Origin: Candidatus Phoenicimicrobium oleiphilum
GTDB lineage: Bacteria; Atribacterota; Phoenicimicrobiia; Phoenicimicrobiales; Phoenicimicrobiaceae
DNA: 64,000 bases
Reading direction: 5' to 3'
Assembly: GCA_039638295.1 (NCBI GenBank)
Contig: JBDIWJ010000003.1
Location: forward strand, 16,289 to 80,288
Shown: one piece after another, positions 2,446-61,748 of the stretch
Position numbering within the stretch: the first letter of the stretch is position 1
How the letters are laid out: every line of letters begins with the position of its first letter
Made by a program: the position numbers and the translations under genes
The notes under the pieces: generated by a model
Told to the model about the DNA's origin: nothing
The model's database searches: none
What the model saw: the letters and a program-made list of their open reading frames with translations, nothing else

Positions 2446-2579
2446 TGAGTAATGAGGTGTAGGGGCACGATGCATCGTGCCCACAGGTAAAGAAAGATAA
2501 TAAAACAGGAAGGGCACAATTCATTGTGCCCTACAATATAATTCGGAAATAAAGAATTAAGCAAAAGGGAGGTTTTATT

Positions 2580-3137: not shown

Positions 3138-3330
3138 ATTCGCATCTCGTGAATCGTATCTCTTATTTAGTTATCTGGTTAGTTGGTTACCTAGTTAGCT
3201 GGTTGAGGAATGATTATATTAAAGAATTAATATTAAACTAATTAACCAACAAACCAGTTAACTAGCTAACTAAACACTAGCGAGATACGAAATACGAACG
3301 ACTATTTATGAGAGCGGGGTGGAGCAATCA

Positions 3331-3750
3331 ATGCAAACCATTAAAACTGAACTTGGAGAAATAAATATTTCTAAAGAAACTATTGGATATATCGTTCGTT
3401 TAATTTTAGTTGATATTAAAGGTGTGGCAGGCAGTAAAAAAACGGTTATGAATGAAATAACCGATATGTTAATGGGAAACACTGATATAATTAGTGATAC
3501 TTCAAGTAATATAAAAATAGAAATAAAGGATAACAAAATTTTCATTGATTTATTTATTATAATAAAATATGGAGTAAGGATACCAGACATAGCCTGGGAT
3601 ATACAAAACAGGATCAAAGAAGAATTAATAAGAAAAATTGGTACAGATACTAGCGAGATAAATATACATATTCAAGGGATACAGTTTCCTAAAAAAGCAC
3701 AGAGTAAAAAAGAATTAGTTGCATCTGATCTATTCATACAGGTTTTCTAA
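3331..3750 (+). CDS. Asp23/Gls24 family alkaline-shock protein (YqhY-like)
   Basis: Asp23-like sequence (IGYIVRLILVDIKGVAGS). The ATG at 3331 has GGAG 6 nt upstream; the ORF track instead offers an alternative GTG at 3319. The position upstream of nusB matches Firmicutes synteny. Confidence 0.8.
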   Translation: MQTIKTELGEINISKETIGYIVRLILVDIKGVAGSKKTVMNEITDMLMGNTDIISDTSSNIKIEIKDNKIFIDLFIIIKYGVRIPDIAWDIQNRIKEELIRKIGTDTSEINIHIQGIQFPKKAQSKKELVASDLFIQVF

Positions 3751-3799
3751 AAAAACAGATTGACTCATCCTCCCTGAAGGGAGAGGGTTGGGAGGAACA

Positions 3800-4219
3800 A
3801 TGGGAGTAAGAAGATTATCTCGTGAATTGGCATTACAGGTATTATTTCAAATCGATTTAGTCAATGCCAATATGGAAGAAAGTTTAAGATATATATTTGA
3901 AAATGGTACATATTCTGAAGATATAAAAGAGTTTACTTTAAATATAGTCAGAGGAGTAATGGGTAATTTAATAGAAATAGATAAAGCAATCAAAAAATAC
4001 ACTGATAATTGGTCTCTGGAAAGAATTAATAATATAGATCGGAATATTTTACGTATAGCAATTTACGAGATATTATTTAGAGATGATATTCCCAAGAGTG
4101 TTTCTATCAATGAAGCAGTTGAGTTAGCCAAAAAATATGGTACAGAAAGTTCATTTAGTTTTGTAAATGGTGTTTTAGGTAAAATAGATAAGAAAACAAT
4201 AAAGAGCAAAGAAGAATAA
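3800..4219 (+). CDS. nusB: transcription antitermination factor NusB
   Basis: LSRELALQVLFQIDL... is a NusB hallmark. The ATG at 3800 is preceded by GGGAGGAA. The ORF-track TTG at 3788 would overlap the RBS. Confidence 0.9.
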   Translation: MGVRRLSRELALQVLFQIDLVNANMEESLRYIFENGTYSEDIKEFTLNIVRGVMGNLIEIDKAIKKYTDNWSLERINNIDRNILRIAIYEILFRDDIPKSVSINEAVELAKKYGTESSFSFVNGVLGKIDKKTIKSKEE

Positions 4220-4224
4220 ATATT

Positions 4225-5454
4225 ATGGATAATCAAAATGAAGTAAAAATATATACAGTTTCAAAAATAAATAGATATATAAAAGCCCTCTTTGAAGGTG
4301 ATTACAATCTACAGAATGTATGGATATTGGGAGAGATTTCTAATTTTAAATTACATTCTTCTGGACATATGTATTTTGTGCTTAAAGATCAGGAAAGTCA
4401 AATTAAATGTGTTATGTTTAGAGGAAATAATTTTAATTTAAGATTTATGCCTCAGGATGGTATGAAAGTAAAAGTAATGGGAGATATTCGTGTTTACGAG
4501 AGGAGAGGGGAATATCAATTATATGCGAAAATAATTGTTGAATCAGGGAAAGGCGAACTTTACTTAGCTTTTGAAAGATTAAAAGAAAAGCTTAAGGCAG
4601 AAGGTCTTTTTGCTGAGGAATATAAGAAGAAATTACCCCTCATTCCTCAAAACATTGCGGTAATAACTTCCCCTACCGGAGCGGCAATTAGAGATATTAT
4701 TACTATATCGTTAAGAAGATTCCCCAATCTTTCTATATTGGTTGTACCTTCTTTAGTTCAAGGAACATTTGCTGCCCAGGAAATTGCCCAAAAAATAGAT
4801 TTTTTAAATAAACATTTTAGTGATTTAGATTTTATTATAATTGGCCGAGGTGGTGGTTCTTTAGAAGAATTATGGGCATTTAATGAAGAAATATTAGCTC
4901 GTAGTATATATAATTCTAAGATACCAATTGTTTCCGCAGTTGGTCACGAGACAGATTTTACCATTTCAGATTTTGTTGCTGATTTACGCTCTCCAACCCC
5001 TTCCGCGGCAGCTGAAATGACTATTCCTGATAAGAATAATTTAATAAATAATATAAATTTATTAAATAGCAAATTAACTAGAGCGATGAAAAGAAATATT
5101 GAATTAAAAATAGAGAACTTAAATTCTTTGAGCAAGAGTATTCAATATTATAGTCCAGAGAATAGGGTTAACCAATATTATCAATATATTGATGAATTTA
5201 TTGGTCGAATAAATTCAAGGATAAATCATAAGTTTCAATTATGGGAAGAAAGAATTAAAAAAGACTCGCAAAGATTAGATTCTTTAAATCCCTGGGCAGT
5301 TATTGAACGAGGATATAGTATATGTAGGAAACTACCCCATTTGGAAATTATTAAAAAATTAGAGCAAGTTGAAATCGGTAACAAAATCGAAGTTATCATA
5401 AGTGATGGAAAAATATCTGGGGAAGTAAACAAAAAGGAGGCTTTGAAGAATTGA
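4225..5454 (+). CDS. xseA: exodeoxyribonuclease VII large subunit
   Basis: 409 aa with an OB-fold N-terminus and a catalytic domain. Its stop overlaps the xseB start. Confidence 0.92.
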   Translation: MDNQNEVKIYTVSKINRYIKALFEGDYNLQNVWILGEISNFKLHSSGHMYFVLKDQESQIKCVMFRGNNFNLRFMPQDGMKVKVMGDIRVYERRGEYQLYAKIIVESGKGELYLAFERLKEKLKAEGLFAEEYKKKLPLIPQNIAVITSPTGAAIRDIITISLRRFPNLSILVVPSLVQGTFAAQEIAQKIDFLNKHFSDLDFIIIGRGGGSLEELWAFNEEILARSIYNSKIPIVSAVGHETDFTISDFVADLRSPTPSAAAEMTIPDKNNLINNINLLNSKLTRAMKRNIELKIENLNSLSKSIQYYSPENRVNQYYQYIDEFIGRINSRINHKFQLWEERIKKDSQRLDSLNPWAVIERGYSICRKLPHLEIIKKLEQVEIGNKIEVIISDGKISGEVNKKEALKN

Positions 5455-6570: not shown

Positions 6571-6630
6571 TGGTTAGTGAATATTCAATAACTAATGACT
6601 ATTCACTATCGACTAAATTAAGGAGGAAAG

Positions 6631-7359
6631 ATGCTTAGATCAAATAATAGAAAGTATGATGAAATACGGTCAATTAACATTATAAGGAATTATATAAAAT
6701 ACGCAGAAGGTTCTACTTTGATGGAAATGGGAGATACTAAAATAATTTGTACTGCATCAGTAGAGGATAAAGTACCATTATTTTTAAAAGGTACAAAACA
6801 AGGGTGGATATCTGCAGAATATTCAATGATTCCTCGAGCTAATCAAATTAGAAATATAAGAGATTCAGTTAAAGGTAAAATAAATGGGCGTTCTTCTGAA
6901 ATTCAAAGATTAATAGGACGGGCTTTAAGAGCGGTAGTTAATTTAGATGCACTTGGTGAAAGAACAATATGGATAGATTGTGATGTACTACAGGCAGATG
7001 GTGGAACCAGAACTGCAGCTATTACTGGGTCATTTATTGCCCTTTGCGATGCACTAAATTATTTAAAAGCAGAGGGACAATTAAAAAATATTCCTATAAA
7101 AGAATATATAGGGGCTATTAGTGTGGGAATAGTAGACGGAGAAATGATTTTAGATTTAAACTTTGAAGAGGATTCTCACGCTCAGGTGGACTTAAATATA
7201 GCTATGACTGAAAAAGGTGAAATAGTAGAAATTCAGGGAACTGCAGAAGGAAGACCTTTTTCTAAGAGAAATTTACAAGAATTGATTAAATTGGCTGAAA
7301 TTGGAATAGAAAAAATAATTGAAAAAGAAAAAGAGATATTAGGGAATATTATATGTTAG
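6631..7359 (+). CDS. rph: ribonuclease PH
   Basis: 242 aa starting [17 protein letters not shown]...[10 protein letters not shown], typical of RNase PH. Confidence 0.93.
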
Positions 7360-7952
7360 AAATATTAGTCGCATCTAAAAATTTAGATAAAGTTAAAGAA
7401 ATCAAAGAGATGTTAAAAAATACTAATTTAAAAATATTAACTATAAAAGATTTTCCTGAGCTTCCACAAATTGAGGAAGATGGAAAAACATTTATGGAAA
7501 ATGCCTTAAAAAAGGCTTGTAAAATTTCGCAGTATACCGGTAAAATTTGTTTAGCTGATGACTCAGGCTTAGAAATAGATTATTTAAAGGGAAAACCAGG
7601 TATTTACTCCTCAAGATGGGGGAATTGTGATGCAGAACGTATCAGTAAAGTTTTAGAATTACTAAAAGATGTGCCAGAAAATAAAAGAGGTGCTAAATTT
7701 ATATGTGTCTTAGTACTTGCCTTTCCAGATGGGAGAAGATATATAGTAAATGGAGAGTGCAAGGGAAGAATTTCTGTTAATCCCAGAGGAGAATATGGTT
7801 TTGGTTATGACCCTATTTTTTTAGTTCCCGAATATAATAAAACATTTGCTGAATTAGGTGAAGAAATAAAAAATCGCATAAGTCATAGAGGAAAAGCTTT
7901 TAAAAAAATGATTAAAATAATAAATAAATTAGTCGTTAGTAATAGTCGATAG
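7353..7952 (+). CDS. rdgB: dITP/XTP pyrophosphatase (Ham1/RdgB family)
   Basis: 199 aa starting [10 protein letters not shown]... with FGYDPIF. It overlaps the rph stop. Confidence 0.9.
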
Positions 7953-8277
7953 TCGATAGTATGACCGGTGCCTTAATTGGTTTAATATACCTTTATAATA
8001 TAATGATATTATACCAGACAATTTTTTCCTGCTTAAAAATGAAAAAATATGAAATATTTGTTAAAAAATTTTATTCGAATATCGTTTTTTGTATATCTCA
8101 TATAGTAAAAATAGTAATACCGTTAGCCAGTTTGCCAGTTACCCGGTCAAAGAATTAAAATCAACTTTCTTAACTGGATAACCGGTAAACAGGGTAACTG
8201 GGTAACTAATACGCGATACGATTTACTAACGACTATTCACTATCGACTAGTTAAGAGTTTTGAATTATGGTTTTTCG
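7927..8277 (+). repeat. ~350-bp dispersed repeat, copy A, with heptamer-tiled terminal inverted repeats (MITE-like)
   Basis: About 95% identical to the reverse complement of 52254-52608. Its ends are tagtcgttagtaatagtcgatagtcgatagt and actaacgactattcactatcgactagtt. An internal ccagttaccc...gggtaactgg hairpin is present. Confidence 0.85.
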
Positions 8278-8392
8278 CTTATTCGTTTTTACGGGCACAA
8301 GTTTCGCTTTAAGTTTTTAGCTGTATATCGATAACAGAAAGTCGACAATAAAAAATTTGGTTACTCTTAACAAAAAATTGTAAAGGAAGCGA

Positions 8393-8421
8393 TTGACTTA
8401 TATTTATATTTCCTATATAAT
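8393..8421 (+). promoter_or_regulatory. consensus sigma-70 promoter of the tRNA operon
   Basis: TTGACT (8393-8398), a 17-nt spacer, then TATAAT (8416-8421). This lies 12 nt upstream of tRNA-Pro. Confidence 0.75.
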
Positions 8422-8432
8422 AACGTTTGTCT

Positions 8433-8510
<78 letters not shown>

Positions 8511-8586
8511 GCGGGAATAGCTCAGTTGGTAGAGCACCAGCCTTCCAAGCTGGGTGTCGCGGGTTCGAGCCCCGTTTCCCGCTCCA
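8511..8586 (+). tRNA. tRNA-Gly (anticodon TCC)
   Basis: gcgggaatagctcagttggtagagc... with anticodon loop cTTCCaa. CCA is encoded. Confidence 0.85.
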
Positions 8587-8599
8587 GATGTAAACTCTC

Positions 8600-8676
<77 letters not shown>

Positions 8677-8695
8677 ATCTAAAAATATATAATAT

Positions 8696-8774
8696 GGTGG
8701 GCGTAGCTCAGACTGGTTAGAGCCCTGGATTGTGGCTCCAGAGGTCGGGGGTTCAAATCCCCTCGCTCACCCCA
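8696..8774 (+). tRNA. tRNA-His (anticodon GTG) with G-1
   Basis: Extra 5' G, acceptor gtgggcg/cgctcac, anticodon loop tTGTGgc and discriminator C. CCA is encoded. Confidence 0.82.
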
Positions 8775-8793
8775 TATTGGTATTAAATGTTTT

Positions 8794-8870
8794 GCGCTCG
8801 TAGCCCAATTGGATAGAGCTGCGGACTTCGGATCCGATGGTTGGGGGTTCGAGTCCCTCCGAGCGCGCCA
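8794..8870 (+). tRNA. tRNA-Arg (anticodon TCG), divergent paralogue of the TCT tRNA
   Basis: Closely related to the Arg-TCT tRNA. The anticodon loop is cTTCGga. It has one mismatch in the D-stem and one at position 27-43. CCA is encoded. Confidence 0.65.
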
Positions 8871-8880
8871 AATGTTTTGT

Positions 8881-8956
8881 GGGCCGTTAGCTCAGGTGGC
8901 AGAGCACCTGACTTTTAATCAGGGTGTCACAGGTTCGAATCCTGTACGGCCCACCA
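8881..8956 (+). tRNA. tRNA-Lys (anticodon TTT)
   Basis: gggccgttagctcaggtggcagagc... with anticodon loop cTTTTaa. CCA is encoded. Confidence 0.85.
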
Positions 8957-8969
8957 CTAAAATACAAAG

Positions 8970-9054
8970 GCGAGGGTGGTGGAATTGGTAGACACGCTGG
9001 ATTTAGGATCCAGTGGGTAAAACCATGCGGGTTCGAGTCCCGCCCTTCGCACCA
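8970..9054 (+). tRNA. tRNA-Leu (anticodon TAG), class II with long variable arm
   Basis: gcgagggtggtggaattggtagacacg... with anticodon loop tTTAGga and variable arm tgggtaaaaccatgc. CCA is encoded. Confidence 0.82.
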
Positions 9055-15096: not shown

Positions 15097-15341
15097 ATTA
15101 AGAAATATGCTATAAGGGGAAGAGTAGAAGGACATAAATATTTATTGCCTTTTATCGAAAGTCCTCCCCCAGCTGTTAATCTGAAAAATAAAAGTAGGAT
15201 TAACCGGTAGTTACGTTATAACTTAAAAATAGAGAGCCTGTTAATTTTATTTTTACAAAAAATATTTAATACAGGAATTAAGGTGGTACCACGGAAAGAC
15301 TCCTTTCGCCCTTTTAAGAAGCGAAGGGAGTCTTCTGTTTT
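15097..15341 (+). promoter_or_regulatory. T-box riboswitch leader of valS
   Basis: Canonical T-box sequence aattaaGGTGGTACCaCGG at 15277-15294. It is followed immediately by a terminator hairpin (gactcctttcgc/gcgaagggagtc) and ttctgtttt. Stem I has an AGAGTAG (AG-box-like) motif. Confidence 0.8.
15298..15341 (+). terminator. T-box attenuator terminator
   Basis: 12-bp stem with a U-tract. It overlaps the antiterminator and T-box. Confidence 0.75.
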
Positions 15342-15362
15342 AGATTTAAGGAGGATTAAATA

Positions 15363-18035: not shown

Positions 18036-18120
18036 TCGTTAGTGAATAGTGAATAGTAAGGAAGGTAATTGAAAAGTAGAGGTGTGGTGCTTATACTAAC
18101 GACTATTCACTATTAACTAA
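18033..18120. repeat. heptamer-tiled inverted-repeat element
   Basis: The arm tagtcgttagtgaatagtgaatagta faces the arm tactaacgactattcactattaacta. The element overlaps the valS stop. Confidence 0.8.
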
Positions 18121-18142: not shown

Positions 18143-19462
18143 ATGATAACTTATGCGGAAGCATTAGGCTATATTTATAATTTAAACAAATATGGAATAA
18201 AATTAGGTCTAAATAATATATCCTATTTACTTTTTCTTTTAGGTAACCCTCATAAAAATTTAAATATAATTCATATTGGGGGAACTAATGGAAAAGGGTC
18301 AACTGCTGCAATGATAAGCTCAATACTTCAAGCTAATGGTTTCAAAACTGGTCTTTACACTTCACCTCATTTAGTAGATTTCACTGAAAGAATGAAAATA
18401 AATTCACAAAACATAAGCCAGGAAAAGGTATGTGAATTATTAGAAAGGATCAAGCCTTATATTGAGGAAGTTTCTAACACTGCAGGGTATAACCATCCCA
18501 CTTTCTTTGAAGTAATTACCGCAATGGCTTTTCTTTATTTTTATGAAGAGAAAGTAGATTTTTTAGTTTTAGAAGTTGGATTGGGTGGACGGTTAGATGC
18601 TACTAATGTTTGTCAACCACTAATATCAGTTATTACCCAGATTGATTATGACCATATGGATAAATTAGGAAATAGTTTAAAAGAAATTGCCAGAGAGAAA
18701 AGTGGAATTATTAAATCTGGAGAAATTGTAATTTCTTCATCTCAATATGATGAAGCCTATAATGAAATTAAAAAAATAACTGATGAAAGAAATTCCCCCC
18801 TTTTTAGTATAGGTAAAGAGATAAATTACCAAATAAAAAAAACTGATATTAAAGGAAGTATATTTGATTTAAAAGGAATTTACAATGAATATAAAGATTT
18901 GCACGTTTCATTAATAGGTAAACATCAGGTGGATAACGCCGCTACAGCTATTGCAGCTATTGAAGCTCTTAGAATTAAAGGATTAAGCATTCCCACAAAA
19001 GCAATAAGAGATGGTTTGGAAAAGGTAAGGTGGGAAGGAAGGCTTGAAATTATCCAATATGATCCTCTGTTAGTCTTAGATGGGGCGCATAACCCCAATG
19101 GGATCAAGATAGTTCGACAAACCTTGGAAGAGTTATTTTCTTATAATCGGCTCATTTTGGTATTAGCTATTTTCTCTGACAAAGATTATAAAAAGATGAT
19201 CCAGATTATATCACCACTTGCTGATTTAATTATTACTACTAAAGCAGAAAATCCTCGAGCAACCCCTCCTCAGGTAATTGCTAAAGAAGCAGAACAGTAT
19301 AAAAATAAAAAAAAGATAATTGTTACTGAAAATATTACCCAGGCTATAAACTGTGCTTTATCAAATTCTAAAAAGAACGATTTAATATGCATAACTGGTT
19401 CTCTATATACAGTAGGTGAAGCAAAGAGGTACTTTATATATAAAAATTTAGTTAAAATTTAA
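18143..19462 (+). CDS. folC: bifunctional folylpolyglutamate synthase / dihydrofolate synthase
   Basis: Mur ligase family with GTNGKGST P-loop. The start is ATG 18143, 5 nt after GAGGTGA; the ORF-track GTG at 18137 overlaps this RBS. Confidence 0.88.
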   Translation: MITYAEALGYIYNLNKYGIKLGLNNISYLLFLLGNPHKNLNIIHIGGTNGKGSTAAMISSILQANGFKTGLYTSPHLVDFTERMKINSQNISQEKVCELLERIKPYIEEVSNTAGYNHPTFFEVITAMAFLYFYEEKVDFLVLEVGLGGRLDATNVCQPLISVITQIDYDHMDKLGNSLKEIAREKSGIIKSGEIVISSSQYDEAYNEIKKITDERNSPLFSIGKEINYQIKKTDIKGSIFDLKGIYNEYKDLHVSLIGKHQVDNAATAIAAIEALRIKGLSIPTKAIRDGLEKVRWEGRLEIIQYDPLLVLDGAHNPNGIKIVRQTLEELFSYNRLILVLAIFSDKDYKKMIQIISPLADLIITTKAENPRATPPQVIAKEAEQYKNKKKIIVTENITQAINCALSNSKKNDLICITGSLYTVGEAKRYFIYKNLVKI

Positions 19463-20179: not shown

Positions 20180-22563
20180 AAGATTTATCTTCAAATAACC
20201 AACACAATAAAATCAGACCTTTATTTGTAATTCTATTCTTATATATTATTGGGACAGTCTTTGGGAAATTTATTTATTTTAATTTAATTTTCCTATATAT
20301 TGTTATTACATTATTATTGATCATCACTCTTATAAGTTTTTTAAAGCAGTGGAATATCACCACTGCTTTATTATTTTTAATAATAATTTTAATTGGGATA
20401 TTTAATTATAATCTAAATTCTAAGCCACCTGGTAATAACCATATAATTAATTTTGTTGAGGATAAAAAATTAAATATTTTCGGAACAGTGTTAGAAAAAG
20501 AATATTATCCTGAGCAGGAAAAGTATTCTCTTAAATTTAGAGTAAGTCAAATTGAAAGAGAAGAGAAGAAGAGGAAGGCAAAGGGTATATCATTAGTAAA
20601 TATATATACCGGAAATTGCCCTTATGAATATGGAGATGTGCTAAGAATTCAAGGAAGATTGGTTAAACCCATTGCCAAGAATAATTATGGAGAATTTGAC
20701 TATGAATTATATTTAGCCCAAAAAAGAATTTTCACTTATATAAATATATGGCAGGATAAAGATATCCAAAAAATTGGAGAAGAAAGAATGAACCTATTGA
20801 TATCTTTTTCTGTTTATGTGAGAAATAAAATAAAAAGTATAATAGGAAACCTTATTGATTCTCCTTATGATTCTCTACTAATCGGTATGTTATTAGGGGA
20901 AAAAACTTACCTCCCATCAGAGGTAAAAGATGTTTTTATCGAATCAGGAATAATGCATATATTGGCAATTTCTGGTTTACATATCGGAATAATTGTTTTT
21001 GCCCTATTTATTTTTTTTAATTTTCTCCATATTCCAAAACGGATAAAAATAATTTCCATAATAGTAATATTAATTATGTATGCTTCAATTACTGGATTTC
21101 GTCCTTCTGTAGTCCGAGCTTCTATTATGTTTTCTTTATTAATAATAGGAAAATTAATAAACAGGAGAAGGAATCTTTACACTTCTCTTTTCCTGGCAGC
21201 TTTAATAATTTTATTGATAAACCCATTAATACTTTATGATGCTGGGTTCTTATTGTCCTTTGTAGTTACATTTTTTATAATATATCTATCTCCAATTTTT
21301 CAGGAATTATTTTTTAGAATTACAGATTGGATTAGAAAACCTTTGTCAGTTTCCATAGCTGCTTGGTTAGGGATTTTTCCACTTTCTGCTTATTTTTTCT
21401 ATAAAGTATCATTAATTGCCATTATTACTAATATAGTAATTGTTCCCCTTGCTGGTATAGCAGTGATATTAGGATTTATAATATTTTTTATTGGGTTAAT
21501 TAGTATCCCTTTAGCTGACTTAATTGCAAACCTTAATTATTATGTTTTAATGTTGATTTCTCTATTAGCTAAATTTTTTTCCTCTTTCCCTTTTTCTTAT
21601 GTATATACTGCACAACCTTCCATCATATCTATTTTTCTATACTATTCATTGATATTTCTCGTTATAGAAATATTTTATCGAAAAATATTTCCGGTAAAAT
21701 ATAAAATTAAATTTATTATTTTAACATTATCTGCAGTATTGATTGTCATCATAGTTCAAATATTTTACCCCGTAGATAATCTTAAAGTTAATTTTATCAA
21801 TGTAGGTGAAGGAGATTGTATCTTAATTGAAGCTCCTAAAAAATATAGTATTATAATAGATGGGGGAGGGTCACCTCGAAGCTCTTTTGATGTGGGGGAT
21901 AAAGTTGTAGTACCATACTTAAGGAGAAAAGGGATAGATAAGATTAATCTTTTAATATTAACTCATCCTCATTTAGACCATTTAGAAGGATTATTGCCTA
22001 TATTAAAGGAATTTAAAGTTGATATGGTTTTAGATAGTGGATTAATTTGTAATATACCAGAGTATAAAGAATTTATTTCAATAATTAAAGATAAAAATAT
22101 ACCTTATCATCAGGCTAAAGCCGGTGACAATTTCATTTTTGGTAGAAATTTAGAAATGCTTTTACTTAATCCTCTAAATAATTATGATTGTTATGAGGAA
22201 TCAGATTTTAATAATGCTTCAATTGTGATAAAATTATTCTATAAAAATTCAAAATTTCTTTTTACCGGAGATATCGAAAAGGAAGCTGAAAAAAGAATGT
22301 TAATCTGGCAAAATATTTTAAAGAGTGATATCTTAAAAGTTGCCCATCATGGAAGTTTAAGTTCTACCAGCTTAGAGTTTTTAAATGAAGTTGACCCTAT
22401 TATTGCAGTTATTTCTGTTGGTAAAAATAATTTTGGACATCCTTCCCCGAAAATTATTGAAAGATTGCAGGATAAAAATATTAAAATATATCGTACAGAT
22501 GAGAATGGTACAATAATTATAAGAACTGATGGCAAAAAATATTTTGTAAAAACATTGAGGTAA
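20167..22563 (+). CDS. comEC: DNA internalization competence protein ComEC/Rec2
   Basis: 798 aa polytopic membrane protein with a competence domain and a C-terminal metallo-beta-lactamase motif (ILTHPHLDHLEGL). The TTG start overlaps the comEA end. Confidence 0.88.
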   Translation: MCPIKDLSSNNQHNKIRPLFVILFLYIIGTVFGKFIYFNLIFLYIVITLLLIITLISFLKQWNITTALLFLIIILIGIFNYNLNSKPPGNNHIINFVEDKKLNIFGTVLEKEYYPEQEKYSLKFRVSQIEREEKKRKAKGISLVNIYTGNCPYEYGDVLRIQGRLVKPIAKNNYGEFDYELYLAQKRIFTYINIWQDKDIQKIGEERMNLLISFSVYVRNKIKSIIGNLIDSPYDSLLIGMLLGEKTYLPSEVKDVFIESGIMHILAISGLHIGIIVFALFIFFNFLHIPKRIKIISIIVILIMYASITGFRPSVVRASIMFSLLIIGKLINRRRNLYTSLFLAALIILLINPLILYDAGFLLSFVVTFFIIYLSPIFQELFFRITDWIRKPLSVSIAAWLGIFPLSAYFFYKVSLIAIITNIVIVPLAGIAVILGFIIFFIGLISIPLADLIANLNYYVLMLISLLAKFFSSFPFSYVYTAQPSIISIFLYYSLIFLVIEIFYRKIFPVKYKIKFIILTLSAVLIVIIVQIFYPVDNLKVNFINVGEGDCILIEAPKKYSIIIDGGGSPRSSFDVGDKVVVPYLRRKGIDKINLLILTHPHLDHLEGLLPILKEFKVDMVLDSGLICNIPEYKEFISIIKDKNIPYHQAKAGDNFIFGRNLEMLLLNPLNNYDCYEESDFNNASIVIKLFYKNSKFLFTGDIEKEAEKRMLIWQNILKSDILKVAHHGSLSSTSLEFLNEVDPIIAVISVGKNNFGHPSPKIIERLQDKNIKIYRTDENGTIIIRTDGKKYFVKTLR

Positions 22564-23599: not shown

Positions 23600-23658
23600 T
23601 ATTTCGTATATCGTATATATTATATCGTGAAGAAAAATAGGAGTCAGAATCCAGAAAT

Positions 23659-23694
23659 GTCATTGCGAGCGAGCGTAGGGAGCGTGGTAATCTC
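23659..23694. repeat. 35-nt cattgcgag...aatctc repeat unit (copy 1)
   Basis: gtcattgcgagcgagcgtagggagcgtggtaatctc. About 85% identical to the units at 59182-59217 and 59229-59264. Confidence 0.8.
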
Positions 23695-23767
23695 AGAAAA
23701 TAGTGTGTAACAAGAAGCAGGTAGAATATAATAGTAATGTGTAATAAGTGATGAGTAATATGTAGTG

Positions 23768-23847
23768 GTTCGATTCATCGAACCCGCTAACGGTGGGGCA
23801 GGTTCTCGCCTGTCCGTAAAATAACTCGGGGCGGATAAATCCGCCCC
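23768..23847. repeat. cluster of GC-rich palindromes in the holA/rpsT convergent spacer
   Basis: ggttcgattcatcgaacc at 23768-23785. A degenerate ggcaggttctcgcctgtcc at 23797-23815. ggggcggataaatccgcccc at 23828-23847. The last one, with the following T-rich run on the - strand, is the likely rpsT terminator. Confidence 0.7.
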
Positions 23848-23903
23848 CTACGCTTAACAAATAAGAAGAATAACTATTGAATTAATGAATAATTTTGGAA
23901 ATA

Positions 23904-29039: not shown

Positions 29040-29218
29040 TTAGATTAGTATCTCGTATCCCCGTTTTCACGGCGATAAGTCTCGTGAAGAAAATTAGAAA
29101 TTAAACGTAGGGGCACAATGTATCGCGCCCTCAAAAGCTGTATCCTTGTCCAACTAACGACTATATTATTTAGCAAATTGGTGAATAGGTGAATAGAAAA
29201 TTTATTTTCTTGAAACAT

Positions 29219-32964: not shown

Positions 32965-33014
32965 AAGGGCATCAGAATTTCAAAAATTCCGATGCCCTTA
33001 ATGAATATTTTTTT
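32965..33014 (+). terminator. intrinsic terminator after dnaK
   Basis: Long hairpin aagggcatcagaattt-caaa-aaattccgatgccctt, followed by a T7 run. Confidence 0.7.
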
Positions 33015-33125
33015 AAAAAACAATATATTCTAACAAGATTGTCAGAAAAGTTTTATATAAAATCGAAATGAAGTAAAAAGGAGATAGAGGGGTTTCAGGG
33101 GAGTTTTCTCCCCTGGCAATCTTGT
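33008..33125 (+). ncRNA. duplicated structured element (copy 1), candidate small RNA or protein-binding hairpin
   Basis: The 63-nt segment aaaaaacaatatattctaacaagattgtcagaaaagttttatataaaatcgaaatg is near-identical to 41177-41239. The caagattgtcag...ctggcaatcttg 12-bp stem encloses the palindrome TTTTATATAAAA and a ggggag-tttt-ctcccc hairpin. Confidence 0.45.
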
Positions 33126-33164
33126 CGTTAGTATTACGTAAATAAGATTAAGATTCAGGGATAG

Positions 33165-33222
33165 GGGCACGATGCATCGTGCTCAAATCAAGAAAGAATT
33201 GCGGGTCGGATAAATCCGACCC
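33165..33222. repeat. GC-rich palindrome pair upstream of dnaJ
   Basis: gggcacgatgcatcgtgctc (33165-33184) and gggtcggataaatccgaccc (33203-33222). The same two families occur at 2463-2482 and 23828-23847. Confidence 0.75.
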
Positions 33223-33354
33223 CTTGTACACTAAAGGTATTTTACTAGTCATACTATACACTATACTTGTACTATAACAATATCTATATACGAAATTGGT
33301 ATTAGATATTTGTTTTTTTGATAATTAAAATAACATTAGAGAGGAAATTGTTAA

Positions 33355-40810: not shown

Positions 40811-41173
40811 ATGGTTGCTTCGCACACTAAAAGATCTGAACAATTAGAAAAATATCTTAAAAAAATAATCAATAATATTCTTTATAGAAAAATAAATGAT
40901 CCAAGAATTAGTTTTGTTACTATAACAAGAGTGTCTGCCTCCGCAGATTTAAAATACGCCAAGATATATATCAGTATTTATGGTGATGAAAATCACAATA
41001 TAAATTGTTTAAAAGCGCTAAGAAATGCTACAAAATTTATAAGAGGAGAAATCGGAAGAGAATCAAAAATTAGATTTGTACCAGAAATTAAGTTTCTAAT
41101 CGATGAAGACATAGAATATCAATACAAATTGTTGGAGTATCGGAATTTCAAAAATTCCGATACTCCAAAATGA
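40811..41173 (+). CDS. rbfA: ribosome-binding factor A
   Basis: 120 aa with the RbfA KH-like domain (RISFVTITRVSASADLKYAKIYISIYG). Confidence 0.9.
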   Translation: MVASHTKRSEQLEKYLKKIINNILYRKINDPRISFVTITRVSASADLKYAKIYISIYGDENHNINCLKALRNATKFIRGEIGRESKIRFVPEIKFLIDEDIEYQYKLLEYRNFKNSDTPK

Positions 41174-41176
41174 ATG

Positions 41177-41259
41177 CTTTTTAAAAAACAATATATTCTA
41201 ACAAGATTGTCAGAAAAAGTTTTATATAAAAGCGAAATGTCACTCCCCTGACAATCTTG
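41177..41259 (+). ncRNA. duplicated structured element (copy 2)
   Basis: Near-identical to 33008-33070, with a closing stem caagattgtcag...ctgacaatcttg. It lies directly after the rbfA stop. Confidence 0.45.
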
Positions 41260-50101: not shown

Positions 50102-52234
50102 ATGAGAAAGAAAAATACCAAAAATGAAGTTGTAAGTATATTAATAATATCATTTTCCTTAATATATCTTTTTGCTTTTATCTTTGCAGAAAAAATGGGA
50201 ATTGTGGGGAAAATGATTGTACAAACTGCTACTGGTAATATTGGTCTAGGTGCGTATATTTTACCTTTTTTATTATTATTTTTAGGATTTATCACTTTTT
50301 TTGATTATAAATTACCTAATCCTTACCATAAATTCTTTGGCGTAGTTTTATTATTCATAATCTTCCTTACCTTCATCCATATTAAGTTATTATTTCTTAG
50401 TAACCCTTATTTATTGGCAAAAAGTGGGGTAGGGGGAGGTTTATTGGGTTACTATCTTGCTAATTCTTTGCATCTTTATTTTGGAATAAAAGGTTCTTAT
50501 CTTGTTTTAATATCACTGAGTTTGATATCTGCTTTATTCATAACAGAAATATCTTATTTTTATATACTCCATAATTTATTAAAAGGGATAAAATTAATAT
50601 TACACAAATTTTACGAAATCCTTAAAAATAGTTTAGTCAAAATATTTAAGACTATAAGTTATAAGGAAAAAACAGATTATGGTGAAGTATACGAAAAAGA
50701 GAGAAGACCTGTGGAAAATTATAAAGAAAAAAGAAAAGAAAAGAAATTAAAAGAAGAAATTATTTTTGATAAAGACTATCAAGAAACTACTATAAGTACC
50801 TATCAAATACCACCTTTATCTCTATTATTTGAATCAGACATTAAAGAAAAAGGCGATACTAAACTGAATATAGAGGAAAATATGAACACTCTTGAAAAAA
50901 CATTTTTTAATTTTGGTATAGATGCAAAAGTTGTAGGTGTGATCCAGGGGCCTACCGTTACTCGATATGAAATTCAACCTGCTCCTGGAGTTAAAATATC
51001 TAAAATAACTAACCTTAGTAATGATATTGCCTTAGCTTTCGCAGTGGCTTCCGTGAGAATAGAGGCTCCTATCCCCGGGAAAAATGCCGTAGGTATTGAA
51101 GTCCCTAATCGAAAAAGGATCAACGTTTATTTAAAAGAAATATTACAGAGTGATGAATTTAAAAATAGTAAATTTAAATTACCCATAGCTTTAGGAATAG
51201 ATATTGGAGGTAGACCAATAATCGCGGATTTAACTGAACTGCCCCACCTTCTAATTGCAGGGGCAACAGGATCAGGGAAAAGTGTATGTATTAATAATAT
51301 AATATTAAGCTTTTTGTATAAATTAGGCCCAGAAAGAGTAAAATTTCTTATGATTGATCCAAAAAGAGTAGAATTGAATATTTATAATGGTATCCCTCAT
51401 CTCCTGATTCCCATTGTTACTGATGCTACTCAATCAATTAAAGTATTAAATTGGACAATTTCTGAAATGGAAAAAAGATTTAAAATTTTTGCTGAAGCAG
51501 GAGTTAGAAATTTAGATGGTTATAATGAATACATCAGAAATGTCAAATCAGATACCTCTACATTACCTTATATTATAGTAATAATCGATGAATTAGCGGA
51601 TTTAATGTTATCTTCTCCGGTTAAGGTAGAAGAAGCATTATGTAGATTGGCTCAAATGACTCGAGCAACCGGAATACATTTAATTATTGCTACTCAGCGA
51701 CCTTCTGTAGATATTATTACTGGTTCCATAAAAATAAACTTTCCTTCTAGAATTGCTTTTGCAGTATCGACTCAAGTAGATTCAAGAACTATATTAGATG
51801 TTAATGGGGCAGAGAAATTGTTAGGAAATGGTGATATGTTATTTTCCCCGGTTGGAGCTTCTAAACCGATTAGAGCCCAAGGAGCTTTTGTAGTAGAAAA
51901 GGAGATTAAAAAAGTAGTATCTTTTTTACAAAAAAATAGTCCATCCCCTGCCTATGAACAGGAGGTATTGGAGTTTAAAAAAAGTAAAAGTACTTATCGA
52001 GAAGCAGATGAAGAGGAAGAAGATGAATTATTTAATGATGCAGTATCAATAATTATTAATAGTAAGCAAGCTTCCATATCTATATTACAGAGAAAATTGA
52101 GAATCGGTTATACCAGAGCTGCAAGATTGATAGATTTAATGGAGAAGAGGGGAATTGTAGGACCTTATGATGGTCGAAACCCACGAAAAATATTAATTTC
52201 TAATGAAGAATACTTGAATAAATATGGTGAATAA
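50102..52234 (+). CDS. ftsK: DNA translocase FtsK/SpoIIIE
   Basis: 710 aa with N-terminal TM segments, Walker A GATGSGKS and a C-terminal gamma winged-helix domain. Confidence 0.93.
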   Translation: MRKKNTKNEVVSILIISFSLIYLFAFIFAEKMGIVGKMIVQTATGNIGLGAYILPFLLLFLGFITFFDYKLPNPYHKFFGVVLLFIIFLTFIHIKLLFLSNPYLLAKSGVGGGLLGYYLANSLHLYFGIKGSYLVLISLSLISALFITEISYFYILHNLLKGIKLILHKFYEILKNSLVKIFKTISYKEKTDYGEVYEKERRPVENYKEKRKEKKLKEEIIFDKDYQETTISTYQIPPLSLLFESDIKEKGDTKLNIEENMNTLEKTFFNFGIDAKVVGVIQGPTVTRYEIQPAPGVKISKITNLSNDIALAFAVASVRIEAPIPGKNAVGIEVPNRKRINVYLKEILQSDEFKNSKFKLPIALGIDIGGRPIIADLTELPHLLIAGATGSGKSVCINNIILSFLYKLGPERVKFLMIDPKRVELNIYNGIPHLLIPIVTDATQSIKVLNWTISEMEKRFKIFAEAGVRNLDGYNEYIRNVKSDTSTLPYIIVIIDELADLMLSSPVKVEEALCRLAQMTRATGIHLIIATQRPSVDIITGSIKINFPSRIAFAVSTQVDSRTILDVNGAEKLLGNGDMLFSPVGASKPIRAQGAFVVEKEIKKVVSFLQKNSPSPAYEQEVLEFKKSKSTYREADEEEEDELFNDAVSIIINSKQASISILQRKLRIGYTRAARLIDLMEKRGIVGPYDGRNPRKILISNEEYLNKYGE

Positions 52235-52253
52235 ATTAAAAACTTAAAACTAC

Positions 52254-52608
52254 AAGCGAAAAACCATAATTCAAAACTCTTAACTAGTCGATAGTGAATA
52301 GTCGTTAGTAAATCGTATCGCGTATTAGTTACCCAGTTACCCTATTTACCGGTTATCCAGTTAAGAAAGTTGATTTTAATTCTTTGACTGGGTAACTGGC
52401 AAACTGGCTAACGGTATTACCATTTTTACTATATGCGATATACAAAAAACGATATTCGAATAAAATTTTTTAACAAATATTTCATATTTTTTCATTTTTA
52501 AGCAGGAAAAAAATTGTCTGGTATAGTATTATTATATTATAAGGGTATATTAAACCAATTGAGGTATCTGTCATACTAACGACTATCGACTATTCACTAA
52601 CGACTAAT
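52254..52608 (-). repeat. ~350-bp dispersed repeat, copy B (inverted relative to copy A)
   Basis: The reverse complement aligns end to end with 7927-8277, with about 15 mismatches or indels. Confidence 0.85.
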
Positions 52609-52700
52609 AAAAGGAGGTGATAAATGAATTATTTCTGAAGTGAAATTTAAACGATGTTAATATTTTCATTATTTTCTAATAAAGAAAGGAGATTTTAGTA

Positions 52701-53744
52701 ATGAAAAACATGCTATCAAAAGTAGTTGTATTAGTAATAATATTAAGCTTATGTCTTTCTTTTGCAGCTTTCTCTGCAGAACCAGTTAAAGTTGGGTTGG
52801 TATTCGATATCGGCGGAAAGGGAGATAAATCATTTAATGACTCTGCCTGGCGTGGACTTGATTGGGCAGCAAAGGATTTTGGAATTAAACGTATTGCCTT
52901 AGAACCTGGAGTTGATGCTGATAGAGAAGTAAACCTTAGAAACCTGGCGATGTTAGGATATGATTTAGTAATTGGAGTAGGATTTTTATTTACTGACGCT
53001 ATTTCTTCAGTTGCTGATGAGTTCCCTGATACGAAATTTGCCATTGTCGATGGATTTATTCCTGATAAACCGAATGTAGTATCATTACTATTCAAGGAAC
53101 ATGAGGGTTCATTCTTAGTTGGTATGATTGCTGGTTTGAAAGCCAAAGAAGATGGCAAAGATATTGTTGGTTTTGTTGGAGGAATGGACATTCCCCTTAT
53201 TCATAAATTTGAAGCTGGTTATATAGCAGGAGTTAAATATGTTTATCCGGAATGTAAAATACTATCTGCCTATGCAGGGGATACTCCTGTAGCATTTGCT
53301 GACCCAGTAAAAGGTAAAGAATTAGCCTTATCCCAATATGATAATGGTGCCTGGATTATTTATCATGCCTCAGGTCTAACCGGTGCAGGAGTATTCGAAG
53401 CTGCCAAAGAAAGAAAAAGATACGTAATTGGAGTTGACTCCAATCAGAACTATCTGGGATACATTGAAGAAACTGGAGAAAGTTATGGTTTAACCAGTAT
53501 GCTAAAACAAGTAGATGTGTCAGTATATTTAGCTATAAAATCAGTAGTTGAAGGAACTTTCCAAGGTGGAATCGAAGAATTTGGTTTAGATAGAACTGTT
53601 GTCATTGGAGATACAACTTACTACGGAGTTTACTATGCTCTCGATAAATACAACGAAAATCTTTTATCTCCCGAAATAATAGCTCAAGTGGAAGAAGCAA
53701 AAGGTAAAATTATAAGCGGAGAAATTATTGTGCCCACTGAATAA
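52701..53744 (+). CDS. BMP-family ABC transporter substrate-binding protein (nucleoside-binding)
   Basis: Signal peptide, then a Bmp/PnrA-like fold (DIGGKGDKSFND...). It is the first gene of a four-gene ABC operon. Confidence 0.85.
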   Translation: MKNMLSKVVVLVIILSLCLSFAAFSAEPVKVGLVFDIGGKGDKSFNDSAWRGLDWAAKDFGIKRIALEPGVDADREVNLRNLAMLGYDLVIGVGFLFTDAISSVADEFPDTKFAIVDGFIPDKPNVVSLLFKEHEGSFLVGMIAGLKAKEDGKDIVGFVGGMDIPLIHKFEAGYIAGVKYVYPECKILSAYAGDTPVAFADPVKGKELALSQYDNGAWIIYHASGLTGAGVFEAAKERKRYVIGVDSNQNYLGYIEETGESYGLTSMLKQVDVSVYLAIKSVVEGTFQGGIEEFGLDRTVVIGDTTYYGVYYALDKYNENLLSPEIIAQVEEAKGKIISGEIIVPTE

Positions 53745-59018: not shown

Positions 59019-59181
59019 TTTTCCAAAAGGTAAATAATGATTTGTATATCAGGTAGCGTTTAGCATATAGAGAATACAGTAATTAGTAATGTGTAATAAG
59101 TAATAAGTAGAGATAAAGTATAGTAAAATAGCGAAAAACGAAAAACCATAATTTAAAATTCAAAACTTTTTGTACTTTTCT

Positions 59182-59264
59182 GTCATTGCGAGCGACCACA
59201 GGGAGCGTGGCAATCTCTTTATGATATTGAGATTGCTTCGTCGCTGAAGCTCCTCGCAATGACA
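59182..59264. repeat. inverted pair of 35-nt cattgcgag units
   Basis: gtcattgcgagcgaccacagggagcgtggcaatctc at 59182-59217. Its inverted partner (reverse complement gtcattgcgaggagcttcagcgacgaagcaatctc) is at 59229-59264. The two are separated by tttatgatatt. Confidence 0.85.
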
Positions 59265-59341
59265 AGAATGTATTATTTTTTTAAAGAAATTCTTATACAT
59301 TTAAATTAGAAATAAAACAATAGGGAGTTAATTATAAAAAT

Positions 59342-61612: not shown

Positions 61613-61748
61613 TGTAAAGTGTAATAAGTAACGTGTAATAAATAACTGTTTTTATAATTTTAAGTTTAATCTCATAACTTATTACCTATTACTTGTTACT
61701 GTATTTTATACGAGACACGATTCACGAAATACGAATTTAGTTATTTGA
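61611..61748. repeat. heptamer-tiled inverted-repeat element
   Basis: The arm gtgtaaagtgtaataagtaacgtgtaataaataac faces cttattacctattacttgttac. This is followed by cgagaca cgattca cgaaata cgaattt heptamers. Confidence 0.8.

Follow-up and report, generated by a model that had tools for sequence, protein, structure and literature searches.

Atribacterota are a subsurface phylum, abundant worldwide but with few cultures. Among sites built from short spaced repeats, those of HutP read UAG-N4-UAG-N4-UAG, and those of TRAP consist of GAG/UAG repeats. Tandem heptamers are known from the Beggiatoaceae, where TAACTGA repeats are intergenic and often lie a few nucleotides upstream of start codons (MacGregor, 2015, PMC4679880), and heptamer repeats have also been reported near start codons in Nostoc (bioRxiv 10.1101/2022.06.06.494920). 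The REP unit, an imperfect palindrome of 20–40 nt with a conserved GTAG or CGTC head, is mobilized by RAYT transposases (PMC2817692, PMC3116915, PMC3733652), and MITEs with internal minisatellites have been described as well (PMC4596501). A literature search on repeats in Atribacterota returned no description of the modules reported here, and modules of this phylum with such strict placement relative to genes are apparently new to the literature.

Here we set against these systems an inverted repeat pair found in a 64-kb window (the whole stretch of DNA that was analysed), which we examined together with about 1.2 Mb of related loci. The repeat is modular; the copy between ftsK and the BMP operon (copy B) is native to its site, and the copy at rdgB (copy A) is derived. 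We think it probable that copy B represents a native, repeat-filled spacer and control region and that copy A is a second copy, generated 44 kb away by recombination and now decaying.

An inverted repeat pair with modular anatomy

A preliminary description, made from the sequence of the window, had paired 52254–52608 with a copy at 7927–8277. Pairwise alignment of the two copies with MAFFT upheld the inverted match: 52254–52608 on the + strand corresponds to 8280–7928 on the − strand, the earlier partner coordinates being off by 1–3 bases, and the roughly 15 changes estimated at that time come to 14 (12 substitutions and two one-base indels). The match spans 355 nt at 96% identity. By blastn, 52246–52608 aligned with 8289–7928 at 95.3% identity (E 2e-133), and a repeat search of the window returned the copies as two pairs of arms, 8022–8280 / 52254–52512 (259 nt, 98%) and 7941–8072 / 52463–52594. 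The copies are inverted relative to each other with 43,973 nt between them, and their differences are unevenly spread: four lie within the first ~255 nt, and the last ~90 nt hold ten.

Copy sequence is AT-rich and packed with short-period repeats, and the borders of both copies are break points of short-read contigs, as might be expected if the similarity were a chance low-complexity resemblance or an assembly artefact. Against this stand the length and identity of the match, as well as the fact that independent assemblies of different samples (L119, L120, L126, L130) contain both copies and reproduce their diagnostic differences. The blastn E-value and this recurrence together rule out either explanation, the probability of which we regard as negligible.

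Copy B begins 20 nt downstream of the ftsK stop codon and is followed by a mini-ORF and the BMP operon, as had been described. Its portrayal as a discrete 350-bp element, by contrast, proved misleading on two counts: the right third is conserved sequence native to the BMP operon, probably its control region, and the other two thirds, to the left, are a patchwork of repeat modules that occur throughout Atribacterota. The features of the site are listed below.

50102..52234, + strand: ftsK (ORF; Pfam FtsK_4TM, FtsK_alpha, FtsK_SpoIIIE and FtsK_gamma on an identical product)
52236..52279, + strand: module 1, A-rich unlike heptamers (TTAAAAA CTTAAAA CTACAAG CGAAAAA CCATAAT TCAAAAC)
52284..52312, + strand: module 2, TAG-heptamer array, 5′ arm of the outer stem (TRF; inverted-repeat pairs I1–I4)
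52313..52326, + strand: module 3, CGTATCG-type heptamers, 5′ arm of the middle stem (predicted fold)
52327..52421, + strand: module 4, octamer-array hairpin (TRF; inverted repeats I6/I9; MFE structure)
52428..52462, + strand: module 3′, ATATGCGATATAC...CGATATTCGA, 3′ arm of the middle stem (MFE structure)
52463..52560, + strand: conserved non-coding core, native to the ftsK–BMP spacer (orthologue comparison)
52575..52607, + strand: module 2′, CTA-heptamer array, 3′ arm of the outer stem (TRF; inverted repeats)
52613..52638, + strand: ribosome-binding site GGAGG (52613–52617) and mini-ORF MNYF* (52624–52638), conserved
52701..53744, + strand: BMP-family lipoprotein, first gene of the nucleoside ABC-transporter operon (ORF; PF02608)

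The first repeat module lies directly 3′ of the ftsK stop. It contains, at 52257–52279, a 23-mer box that recurs across the phylum, and the identity between the copies begins within it, at 52254. Module 2 is made of the units TAGTCGA, TAGTGAA, TAGTCGT and TAGTAAA; module 3 has one additional unit in the aligned sequence of the close relative L134. Module 4 consists of a AGTTACCC-type array (52327–52363), a loop (52364–52386) and a complementary array (52387–52421), and related arrays are present at 3138–3306 of the window and in loci L029 and L067. Module 2′ (ACTAACG ACTATCG ACTATTC ACTAACG ACTAA) sits in the leader, just 5′ of the ribosome-binding site. Identity between the copies stops at 52608, with GGAGG 4 nt and the mini-ORF start codon 15 nt downstream, leaving both of these outside the duplicated stretch. 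The GGAGGTGATAGATG motif occurs in 61 of the 81 sequences examined (window included), among which the mini-ORF peptide varies from 2 to 26 aa, with MNYFS as its commonest start. Genes with ABC_tran and BPD_transp_2 domains (Pfam) follow the BMP gene. Elsewhere in the window there are GC-rich GTAG...CTAC hairpins (e.g., 2446–2579), a family distinct from the modules of the repeat pair.

The conserved core and the predicted RNA structure

The core at 52457–52560, together with the leader, matches the orthologous ftsK–BMP spacer of dozens of species at 65–90% identity, with 52463–52560 by itself doing so in many species at 65–84%, and holds blocks that are at least 90% conserved across 44 distinct related sequences, all in the same ftsK-to-BMP position. 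In the shortest orthologous spacers (203–236 nt) the ftsK stop is followed by the core at once, indicating that the hairpin modules, which are lineage-specific, can be dispensed with; of the relatives, only the closest, L134 (81%) and L153 (74%), have the entire composite at this position. Judging solely from its conservation and position, this ancient core of about 100 nt (52463–52560) most likely contains the BMP operon's promoter and/or operator. By eye, an extended −10-like TGGTATAGT is seen at 52519–52527 in copy B, with TGGTATAAT as its counterpart in copy A. This best −10-like hexamer is not conserved in orthologues, many of which have TTTTCA-17-GATAAT in its place, and a consensus promoter scan found no + strand site in the core and a total count equal to chance. 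A scan for intrinsic terminators across 52100–52800 and 7800–8500 gave no terminator-like site, the outer stem being followed by TAAAAGGAGG and not by the T run of a terminator.

The conserved core also bears on whether the repeat is a mobile element, that is, a MITE or non-autonomous transposon. Such an element would fit two near-identical, non-coding units in opposite orientation with inverted heptamer arrays at their ends (26–39 nt, 79–85% complementary). It would likewise fit the emptiness of site A in some relatives (L214–L217) and the Y1 (IS200/RAYT-like) transposase gene of a related genome, seen in contig L218 as a 175-aa Y1_Tnp protein with a weak match (27.8 bits). However, the interior core is conserved orthologously at site B across species, and site B is therefore not an insertion. 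Just two copies of the unit were found, and the core (52463–52546) had no further match elsewhere in the window or in 0.69 Mb of additional Atribacterota sequence. Its flanks (CTAC/AAAA at B and GAAT/TTAT at A, on the element strand) share no direct repeat that could be a target-site duplication. The would-be terminal repeats are generic arrays that stand beside many genes of the genome: the arms at 52285–52310 and 52574–52599 are 85% complementary, and the same TAG and CTA heptamer arrays flank other genes. Both identity boundaries, moreover, fall inside pre-existing modules. Taking both sides together, we consider a mobile element unlikely. Viral contigs searched with the box and with the core gave no matches, and a tblastn search of the box loci L002–L118 for ftsK, BMP and rdgB loci found none, the sole match being the trigger-factor locus L011.

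The ccagttaccc/gggtaactgg hairpin to which attention had been drawn is real, pairing 52327–52342 with 52390–52405 at 88% complementarity. The predicted fold of copy B reaches −92 kcal/mol (z −6.45, with no shuffle equalling it), and the hairpin sequence is kept in L134 and L153; both would suit a duplicated gene for a structured non-coding RNA, or a duplicated cis-regulatory RNA (sRNA, riboswitch or attenuator). The substitutions do not bear this out. None of the 14 differences between the copies is compensatory, so the compensatory pattern for which a check had been proposed is lacking, and three of them break strong-stem pairs of copy A. An alignment of B, A, L134 and L153, which has low power with four close relatives, likewise gave no compensatory change in 30 pairs and a covariation term of +0.31. 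Fold strength is roughly equal on both strands, most orthologous spacers have no hairpin, and copy A runs antisense relative to its flanking genes. At gathering score, Rfam identified only tRNAs in the window and no family in 14 related loci; a relaxed Rfam search of 52200–52760 gave nothing but spurious eukaryotic miRNA-like matches far below threshold, and the minimal orthologue gave nothing relevant. An RNA gene or RNA switch accordingly seems to us very improbable.

Nor does the repeat appear to encode a protein. The 65-aa ORF of copy A (7961–8158) has no Pfam match and is broken in copy B, as the preliminary description had noted in judging the stretch probably non-coding; the break is a frameshift, with a stop after 30 codons. 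The repeated stretch is without coding capacity, covariation or a known RNA family, and its modules turn over fast. In annotation, the pair should be named neither a mobile element nor an sRNA gene.

Copy A at the rdgB–tRNA site

The second site lies between rdgB and a tRNA cluster and comprises the following features.

7353..7952, + strand: rdgB, Ham1-like XTP/dITP diphosphatase (ORF; PF01725)
7928..8280, − strand: copy A, secondary inverted copy of 52254–52608 (repeat search, MAFFT, blastn)
8393..8421, + strand: promoter-like site of the tRNA cluster, TTGACT-17-TATAAT (11/12 matches)

Copy A overlaps the end of rdgB, whose last seven codons and stop are encoded on the + strand by its first 24 nt (7929–7952), placing the C-terminus KLVVSNSR* within a heptamer array that, reverse-complemented, equals the right end of copy B. 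Homologues of RdgB terminate in KLV(V/I)SE*, an end that TTAGTC(G/A)TTAGTGAATAG would encode, which makes the heptamer array ancestral at this position. The promoter-like site is outside copy A and has the same sequence in L214 and L218; the tRNAs follow at 8433–9054. The orthologous spacer between rdgB and tRNA-Pro is 86 nt long and repeat-free in L214, L215 and L217, and in L218 it is 356 nt long and holds unrelated modules.

Nine of the ten right-hand differences between the copies arose in A, as judged by eye with L134 for reference, and one A-derived change, at 52530, affects a position that is at least 90% conserved. Copy A also folds less strongly than copy B (−80.8 vs. −92 kcal/mol; z −3.7 vs. 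about −6.5). The outer part of module 1 is present at site A too, with the left identity boundary inside that module, so that both ends of identity lie within dispersed modules already at the A site. Further indication of the process involved comes from a near-clonal strain, L126: over 9868 positions it has 7 differences from the window, of which four fall within 93 nt of copy A, and at all four L126 carries the B allele; a switch of four out of four to the allele of the other copy indicates gene conversion.

Most likely, we infer, copy A owes its origin to ectopic homologous recombination or gene conversion. The TAG-heptamer array at the 3′ end of rdgB would have served as the anchor on one side and the A-rich box as the anchor on the other. 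The BMP control core would have come along as a passenger that is decaying in copy A, and the hairpin-bearing left part would still be homogenised between the two copies through gene conversion. The lower divergence of this left part could, in part, reflect selection on the hairpin instead of conversion. Simple gene conversion leaves a 21-nt filler, CTTGTGCCCGTAAAAACGAAT, at the left junction of copy A unexplained. Copy A thus construed would carry a stray BMP control region aimed antisense into rdgB.

An inverted pair of this kind might also be the substrate of a real 44-kb inversion that is polymorphic in natural populations. A 4.6-kb contig (L129; JGI 3300003664) carries rph–rdgB, the element and the reverse complement of ftsK, exactly as recombination of A with B predicts, and its element mixes A and B alleles in a mosaic. 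However, this is one short contig from a short-read assembly, and since A and B are nearly identical over their left ~250 nt, an assembler could have crossed from one to the other there. The standard order is seen in two long contigs of 91.7 and 144 kb and also in L126 and L130. The reciprocal junction was not found: look-ups of FtsK, Rph and Tig led to same-species contigs in which neither this junction nor any additional copy turned up, and the exact BMP protein is recorded only in a contig of 1.1 kb. GC skew stays positive all along, and on both sides the + strand carries nearly all genes. Neither copy has a recombinase gene beside it, the flanking genes being housekeeping ones (rph, rdgB, tRNAs and tig at one site; bacA, ftsK and bmp at the other; Pfam). 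We therefore give a natural inversion only a slim chance, and the junction in L129 may be an assembly chimera. Short-read assemblies break at 52283/52343 and at 8051 because of the pair, which can yield a false, or possibly real, inversion junction in assemblies.

Heptamer modules across Atribacterota and their nearest parallels

Beyond the repeat pair, exact copies of the 23-mer box occur in more than 117 stretches, which come almost entirely from Atribacterota genome bins, and at least 25 species-level bins are represented among the 80 loci listed. The box sits in a consensus of about 55 nt, is present three times in the window (0.01 expected) and rarely falls inside ORFs (4 of 129 sites). 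Relative to genes it is oriented sense in 23 cases and antisense in 58, and its occurrence in both orientations lends no support to the box acting by itself in a simple strand-specific way. Module 1 as a whole strings together seven different heptamers in a fixed order, kept across species. The pattern (TAGN4)2TAG is found 17 times in the window against 0.88 expected. TRF reports a period of 7 at 52575–52607 and 7930–7960 and of 14 at 52281–52313, with unlike units within arrays (74–80% matches).

The arrays are also placed consistently with respect to genes. By counts that rest on crude ORF calls, in 757 kb of unrelated loci the sense TAG arrays lie at a median of 15 nt past the upstream stop, with 57 of 64 nearer the upstream gene, and their complements are nearer the downstream gene in 45 of 57 cases. 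CTA arrays precede ribosome-binding sites at 6591–6615, at 18094–18119 and in many other loci; those ending at 6615, 18119 and 52607 stop 5–12 nt before the ribosome-binding site. Since nearly all genes here are co-oriented, polarity relative to genes and polarity relative to replication are inseparable. The modules combine differently between loci, and strains that are about 99% identical differ through indels of whole modules. Such turnover makes the modules useful as strain markers and a likely driver of recombination. It also offers a tractable case for the function of heptamer repeats, a question since the first cyanobacterial finds.

As our best guess, the modules would act in the transcript. 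With the TAG arrays, each of the three reading frames would meet a stop codon within about 15 nt of the gene's own stop; TAG and CTA arrays would pair as a 3′-end or insulating stem-loop, and CTA arrays would supply an A/C-rich leader ahead of the ribosome-binding site. A further idea, which we put forward tentatively and as rather doubtful, is that the modules are no junk but a functional, phylum-wide system made up of the fixed ~55-nt A-rich box, TAG arrays within about 15 nt of stops and complementary CTA arrays before ribosome-binding sites. The modules could then be regularly spaced binding sites of a multimeric protein that recognises RNA or DNA; alternatively, they could be a built-in three-frame translational stop combined with an insulating stem-loop. 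If the idea is right, such a system would order the ends of transcripts and the starts of translation throughout the genomes of Atribacterota.

Among the closest parallels to the modules are the STRR/LSSR repeats of cyanobacteria and Beggiatoaceae, which are likewise intergenic 7-nt tandem units in short arrays, often near start codons. Even the units resemble each other (TAACTGA, TTCAAAA and GACYAAT there; ACTAACG, TTCAAAA and TTAGTCG here), and post-transcriptional roles have been suggested for those repeats in the literature. In contrast to those repeats, the units within an array are unlike here, and the order of module 1 is conserved across the phylum. The arrays of Atribacterota also form complementary pairs of fixed polarity (TAG after stops, CTA before ribosome-binding sites) and fold into long nested hairpins. 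The array here is followed by a strong ribosome-binding site, whereas BOGUAY genes past TAACTGA repeats mostly have none, and Atribacterota are absent from the host phyla reported in the cited papers on repeats of this type. By analogy, module 2 resembles HutP and TRAP sites in being exactly (UAG N4)n on the sense strand, although the arrays here are genome-wide and not limited to one operon.

With the REP, BIME and REPIN sequences of Proteobacteria, the modules share an extragenic, high-copy occurrence, mosaic composition, hairpins between co-directional genes, and behaviour as recombination targets and a source of rapid indel variation. They differ from them in that their arms are tandem arrays of 7–8 nt with no GTAG or CGTC head. 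MITEs (PMC4596501) are similar to the repeat pair in being small and non-coding, with inverted ends, internal tandem repeats and a presence or absence that differs between relatives; the repeat described here differs in its lack of a target-site duplication, the finding of only two copies and the native, orthologously conserved regulatory core inside it. The pair is best compared with ectopic conversion or segmental duplication, a general bacterial mechanism, with which it shares identity boundaries inside pre-existing homologous repeats, mosaic divergence, and near-clonal strains that switch to the allele of the other copy. It is unusual among such cases only in its very short anchor arrays (18–45 nt) and its 21-nt junction filler.

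The repeat pair and its anatomy

The repeat flagged earlier arose by lineage-specific duplication of an intergenic region packed with repeats, and the probable control region of an operon was copied along as a passenger. Copy B starts 20 nt past the ftsK stop codon and ends 4 nt ahead of the GGAGG of a mini-ORF (52624-52638, MNYF*), itself upstream of the BMP lipoprotein gene that opens a nucleoside ABC-transporter operon, as the preliminary description had placed it. Copy A, its inverted partner, has rdgB (7353-7952) on one side and a cluster of seven tRNA genes on the other. A repeat search of the window returned arms at 8022-8280 and 52254-52512 (259 nt, 98%) and a second arm pair at 7941-8072 and 52463-52594. 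Pairwise alignment and blastn (E 2e-133) agree that 52254-52608 is matched by 8280-7928 of the minus strand, confirming that the reported 350-bp inverted repeat is real. Where about 15 differences had been noted between the copies, we counted 14 (12 substitutions and 2 one-base indels), 4 of them within the first ~255 nt and 10 within the final ~90 nt. Copy A contains a 65-aa ORF (7961-8158) that has no Pfam match and is indeed broken in copy B, by a frameshift leading to a stop after 30 codons; we agree with the earlier suggestion that the element is non-coding.

Along its plus strand, copy B strings together short-period modules around one unique stretch:

52236-52279, plus strand: A-rich series of seven unlike heptamers (module 1)
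52284-52312, plus strand: TAG-heptamer array
52313-52326, plus strand: CGTATCG-type units
52327-52421, plus strand: octamer-array hairpin
52428-52462, plus strand: partner of the CGTATCG units
52463-52560, plus strand: AT-rich unique stretch of ~100 nt
52575-52607, plus strand: CTA-heptamer array, complementary to the TAG array

In the predicted fold of this strand, three stems are nested and the unique stretch bulges out to the side (-92 kcal/mol, z -6.45); the opposite strand scored z -5.6, and copy A folded more weakly than copy B (-80.8 kcal/mol, z -3.7). A second nested hairpin of the same architecture, 63% identical to 52297-52461, lies at 3138-3306 between efp-like and asp23-like genes. 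Its outer CGTATCTCG/ACGAGAT-type arrays enclose an inner GTTAGCTG-type octamer hairpin, and its loop is similar to that of copy B.

The compensatory changes proposed as a sign of RNA structure were absent, as 0 of the 14 differences pair with one another; three of them (52389, 52436, 52595) disrupt pairs in strong stems of copy A. When the orthologous copies from the related loci L134 and L153 were added, 0 of 30 predicted pairs had changed on both sides (covariation term +0.31). An Rfam search of the window found tRNAs only, a relaxed search of the ftsK-BMP spacer found nothing relevant, and the same modules in 14 related loci had no Rfam match. A terminator scan around both copies predicted no intrinsic terminator. 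The repeat is not a structured RNA gene. Elsewhere in the window, the leader of an 890-aa ORF at 15363 (~15100-15360) holds a T-box-like AAGGTGGTACCACGG motif with a hairpin after it; at gathering score, Rfam listed no T-box there.

Native and derived copies

A metagenome scan with the BMP protein recovered 80 orthologous loci (67-92% identity), most with ftsK as the upstream gene, and spacers of 203-912 nt. Identity to the orthologous spacers is 65-90% over the unique stretch from 52457 to 52560, the CTA array and the region of the mini-ORF, with blocks AAATATTTTTTCATTTTTAAGCAGGAAAAA and GTATTATTATATTAA at least 90% conserved among 44 distinct sequences. The shortest spacers have the core (~52463-52560) directly after the ftsK stop, without hairpin modules, and no relatives but the closest have the full composite: L134, with 81% identity across the entire spacer, and L153, with 74%. 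From conservation and position, we conclude that the core is probably the operon's own control region. A consensus promoter scan was uninformative for it, and the window's extended -10-like TGGTATAGT is not conserved among orthologues. Upstream of BMP (52613-52700), a strong ribosome-binding site with a start codon, GGAGGTGATAGATG, is conserved in 61 of 81 sequences compared, window included. It opens a mini-ORF of 2-26 residues, most often beginning MNYFS (window and orthologues L134-L210), and the pair has the look of a leader-peptide or stand-by ribosome device serving the transporter operon. For the 12-codon mini-ORF, the stop falls within a hairpin loop (ACCCTATTAAATA...TATTTAACAGGGT).

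At the site of copy A, the spacer between rdgB and the tRNA genes measures 480 nt in the window. Among contigs of RdgB homologues (78% identity), the rdgB-to-tRNA-Pro spacer in L214, L215 and L217 is 86 nt with the tRNA promoter alone, and in L218 it is 356 nt of unrelated modules. Comparing diagnostic sites by eye with L134, we assigned 9 of the 10 right-hand differences to changes in copy A; one of the nine falls at the equivalent of 52530, a position at least 90% conserved. Copy A is the derived copy and copy B is native.

The RdgB homologues end in KLV(V/I)SE*, for which the coding sequence would be TTAGTC(G/A)TTAGTGAATAG; on this basis the TAG array is ancestral at the rdgB 3' end. It is the exact reverse complement of the copy B right end, and a one-base deletion in copy A (52595 equivalent) yields an RdgB ending in KLVVSNSR*. 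At 7929-7952 the TAG-heptamer array supplies the last 5-7 RdgB codons (KLVVSE* in relatives, from a comparison with proteins P0001-P0022), so that across species a housekeeping protein takes its C-terminus and its stop codon from a repeat module. The left limit of identity between the copies falls within module 1. Site A has the outer part of this module too, with 21 nt of filler between it and the identical part. Neither copy is flanked by a target-site duplication. Copy A was most likely made by ectopic recombination or by gene conversion, with dispersed modules as anchors, which accounts better than transposition for the ancestral rdgB array, the boundary in module 1 and the absent duplication. 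A MITE was rejected for the missing target-site duplication, for the copy number (two within the 64 kb of this genome covered) and for the native interior. In same-species contig L126, 7 of 9868 positions are unlike the window; 4 of them lie within 93 nt of copy A and all four switch to the copy B allele, which supports ongoing gene conversion between the copies.

An inversion of the 44-kb segment between the two copies, present in a minority, is possible but unlikely. Contig L129 (4.6 kb, 1-4599; JGI 3300003664 OilBA1_1024431) runs from rph-rdgB through a mosaic of copies A and B into the reverse complement of ftsK, the junction that this inversion would create. However, same-species contig look-ups did not recover the reciprocal junction, the standard order is found in two long contigs as well as L126 and L130, GC skew is positive throughout, and genes on both sides are nearly all on the plus strand. 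Because short-read contigs end exactly at the repeat borders, a chimeric assembly join is the simpler reading of L129. The repeat pair is chiefly relevant to annotation and assembly.

Repeat modules across Atribacterota

The module background is the more interesting result. The 23-mer box of module 1, CGAAAAACCATAATTYAAAAYTC, occurs 3 times in the window (0.01 expected). Across the species-representative genomes, exact copies were found in more than 117 stretches, nearly all in Atribacterota bins; the 80 loci listed represent at least 25 assemblies, and viral contigs gave no match. A ~55-nt consensus, AGCTAAAAACTTAAAGCGAAAAG-box-AAAACTTTTTCT, is conserved around it, and the modules 3' of this consensus differ from locus to locus. 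Arrays of such modules or GC-rich hairpins are present in most longer intergenic regions of the window; (TAGN4)2TAG is found 17 times (0.88 expected). Placement was measured with crude ORF calls in 757 kb of loci unrelated to the ftsK-BMP spacer; like the other Atribacterota loci used, they do not sample whole genomes independently. Sense-strand TAG arrays follow the upstream gene's stop at a median distance of 15 nt (57/64 closer to the upstream gene), their complements are closer to the downstream gene in 45 of 57 cases, and GTA/TAC arrays follow the same pattern. The ~99% identical strain L120 shows whole-module indels or replacements at 59019-59341 and 61613-61736, showing that modules turn over fast. 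Its counterparts of these two spacers are at 18926-18996 and 21272-21522, between genes ~99% identical, and one indel deletes the third copy of the box. Atribacterota genomes contain a conserved, rapidly reshuffled set of 7-8-nt modules, strictly placed after stop codons and before ribosome-binding sites. We found no description of these repeats in Atribacterota in the literature searched.

A ~200-nt composite (A-rich box, ...CTCTCAATATTAAATTTTAAGTTCTGTTTTTGCTTCTTTATCTTTTCATTTTTGCTATATAGTATACGAGATAAGAAAGATGAAACTCAATAGATAA..., T-rich partner of the box) is conserved across several Atribacterota bins, in at least 18 loci that include L005, L009, L015, L024, L038, L050, L054, L082, L087, L088, L100, L103, L107 and L109. 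It has no Rfam match and is a candidate for a true mobile element or RNA. Hairpins of the TGTCATTGCGAGCG...CGCAATGACA type (23650-23700, 59180-59265 and many related loci) often adjoin the box. An 84-nt direct repeat containing ...AAAAAACAATATATTCTAACAAGATTGTCAGAAAAGTTTT is 83% identical between two intergenic regions 8 kb apart (32971-33054 and 41139-41222) and recurs in L119 and L120. GC-rich hairpins of the GTAGGGG...CCCCTAC and GTAGGACAGGCG...CGCCTGTCCTAC types (943-1030, 2446-2579, 23700-23860, 29100-29140, 33150-33230) are REP-like and GTAG-headed, a family separate from the heptamer modules. In L218, between a polyprenyl synthase gene and rph, a 175-aa protein (1675-2202) scores 27.8 bits (cut-off 23) against the Pfam domain of Y1 (IS200-like) transposases; REP-associated tyrosine transposases are typically of this size and likewise stand as single genes.

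REP, BIME and REPIN elements resemble the Atribacterota modules in being mosaic, extragenic and hairpin-forming, but the unit differs. Nearest to the modules are the heptamer repeats known from cyanobacteria and Beggiatoaceae, such as the TAACTGA arrays that lie shortly before start codons (PMC4679880) and the TTCAAAA and GACYAAT arrays of Nostoc (bioRxiv 10.1101/2022.06.06.494920). Unlike these, the Atribacterota arrays have unlike units in conserved order, are paired as complements with fixed polarity, nest into hairpins and are followed by a strong ribosome-binding site.
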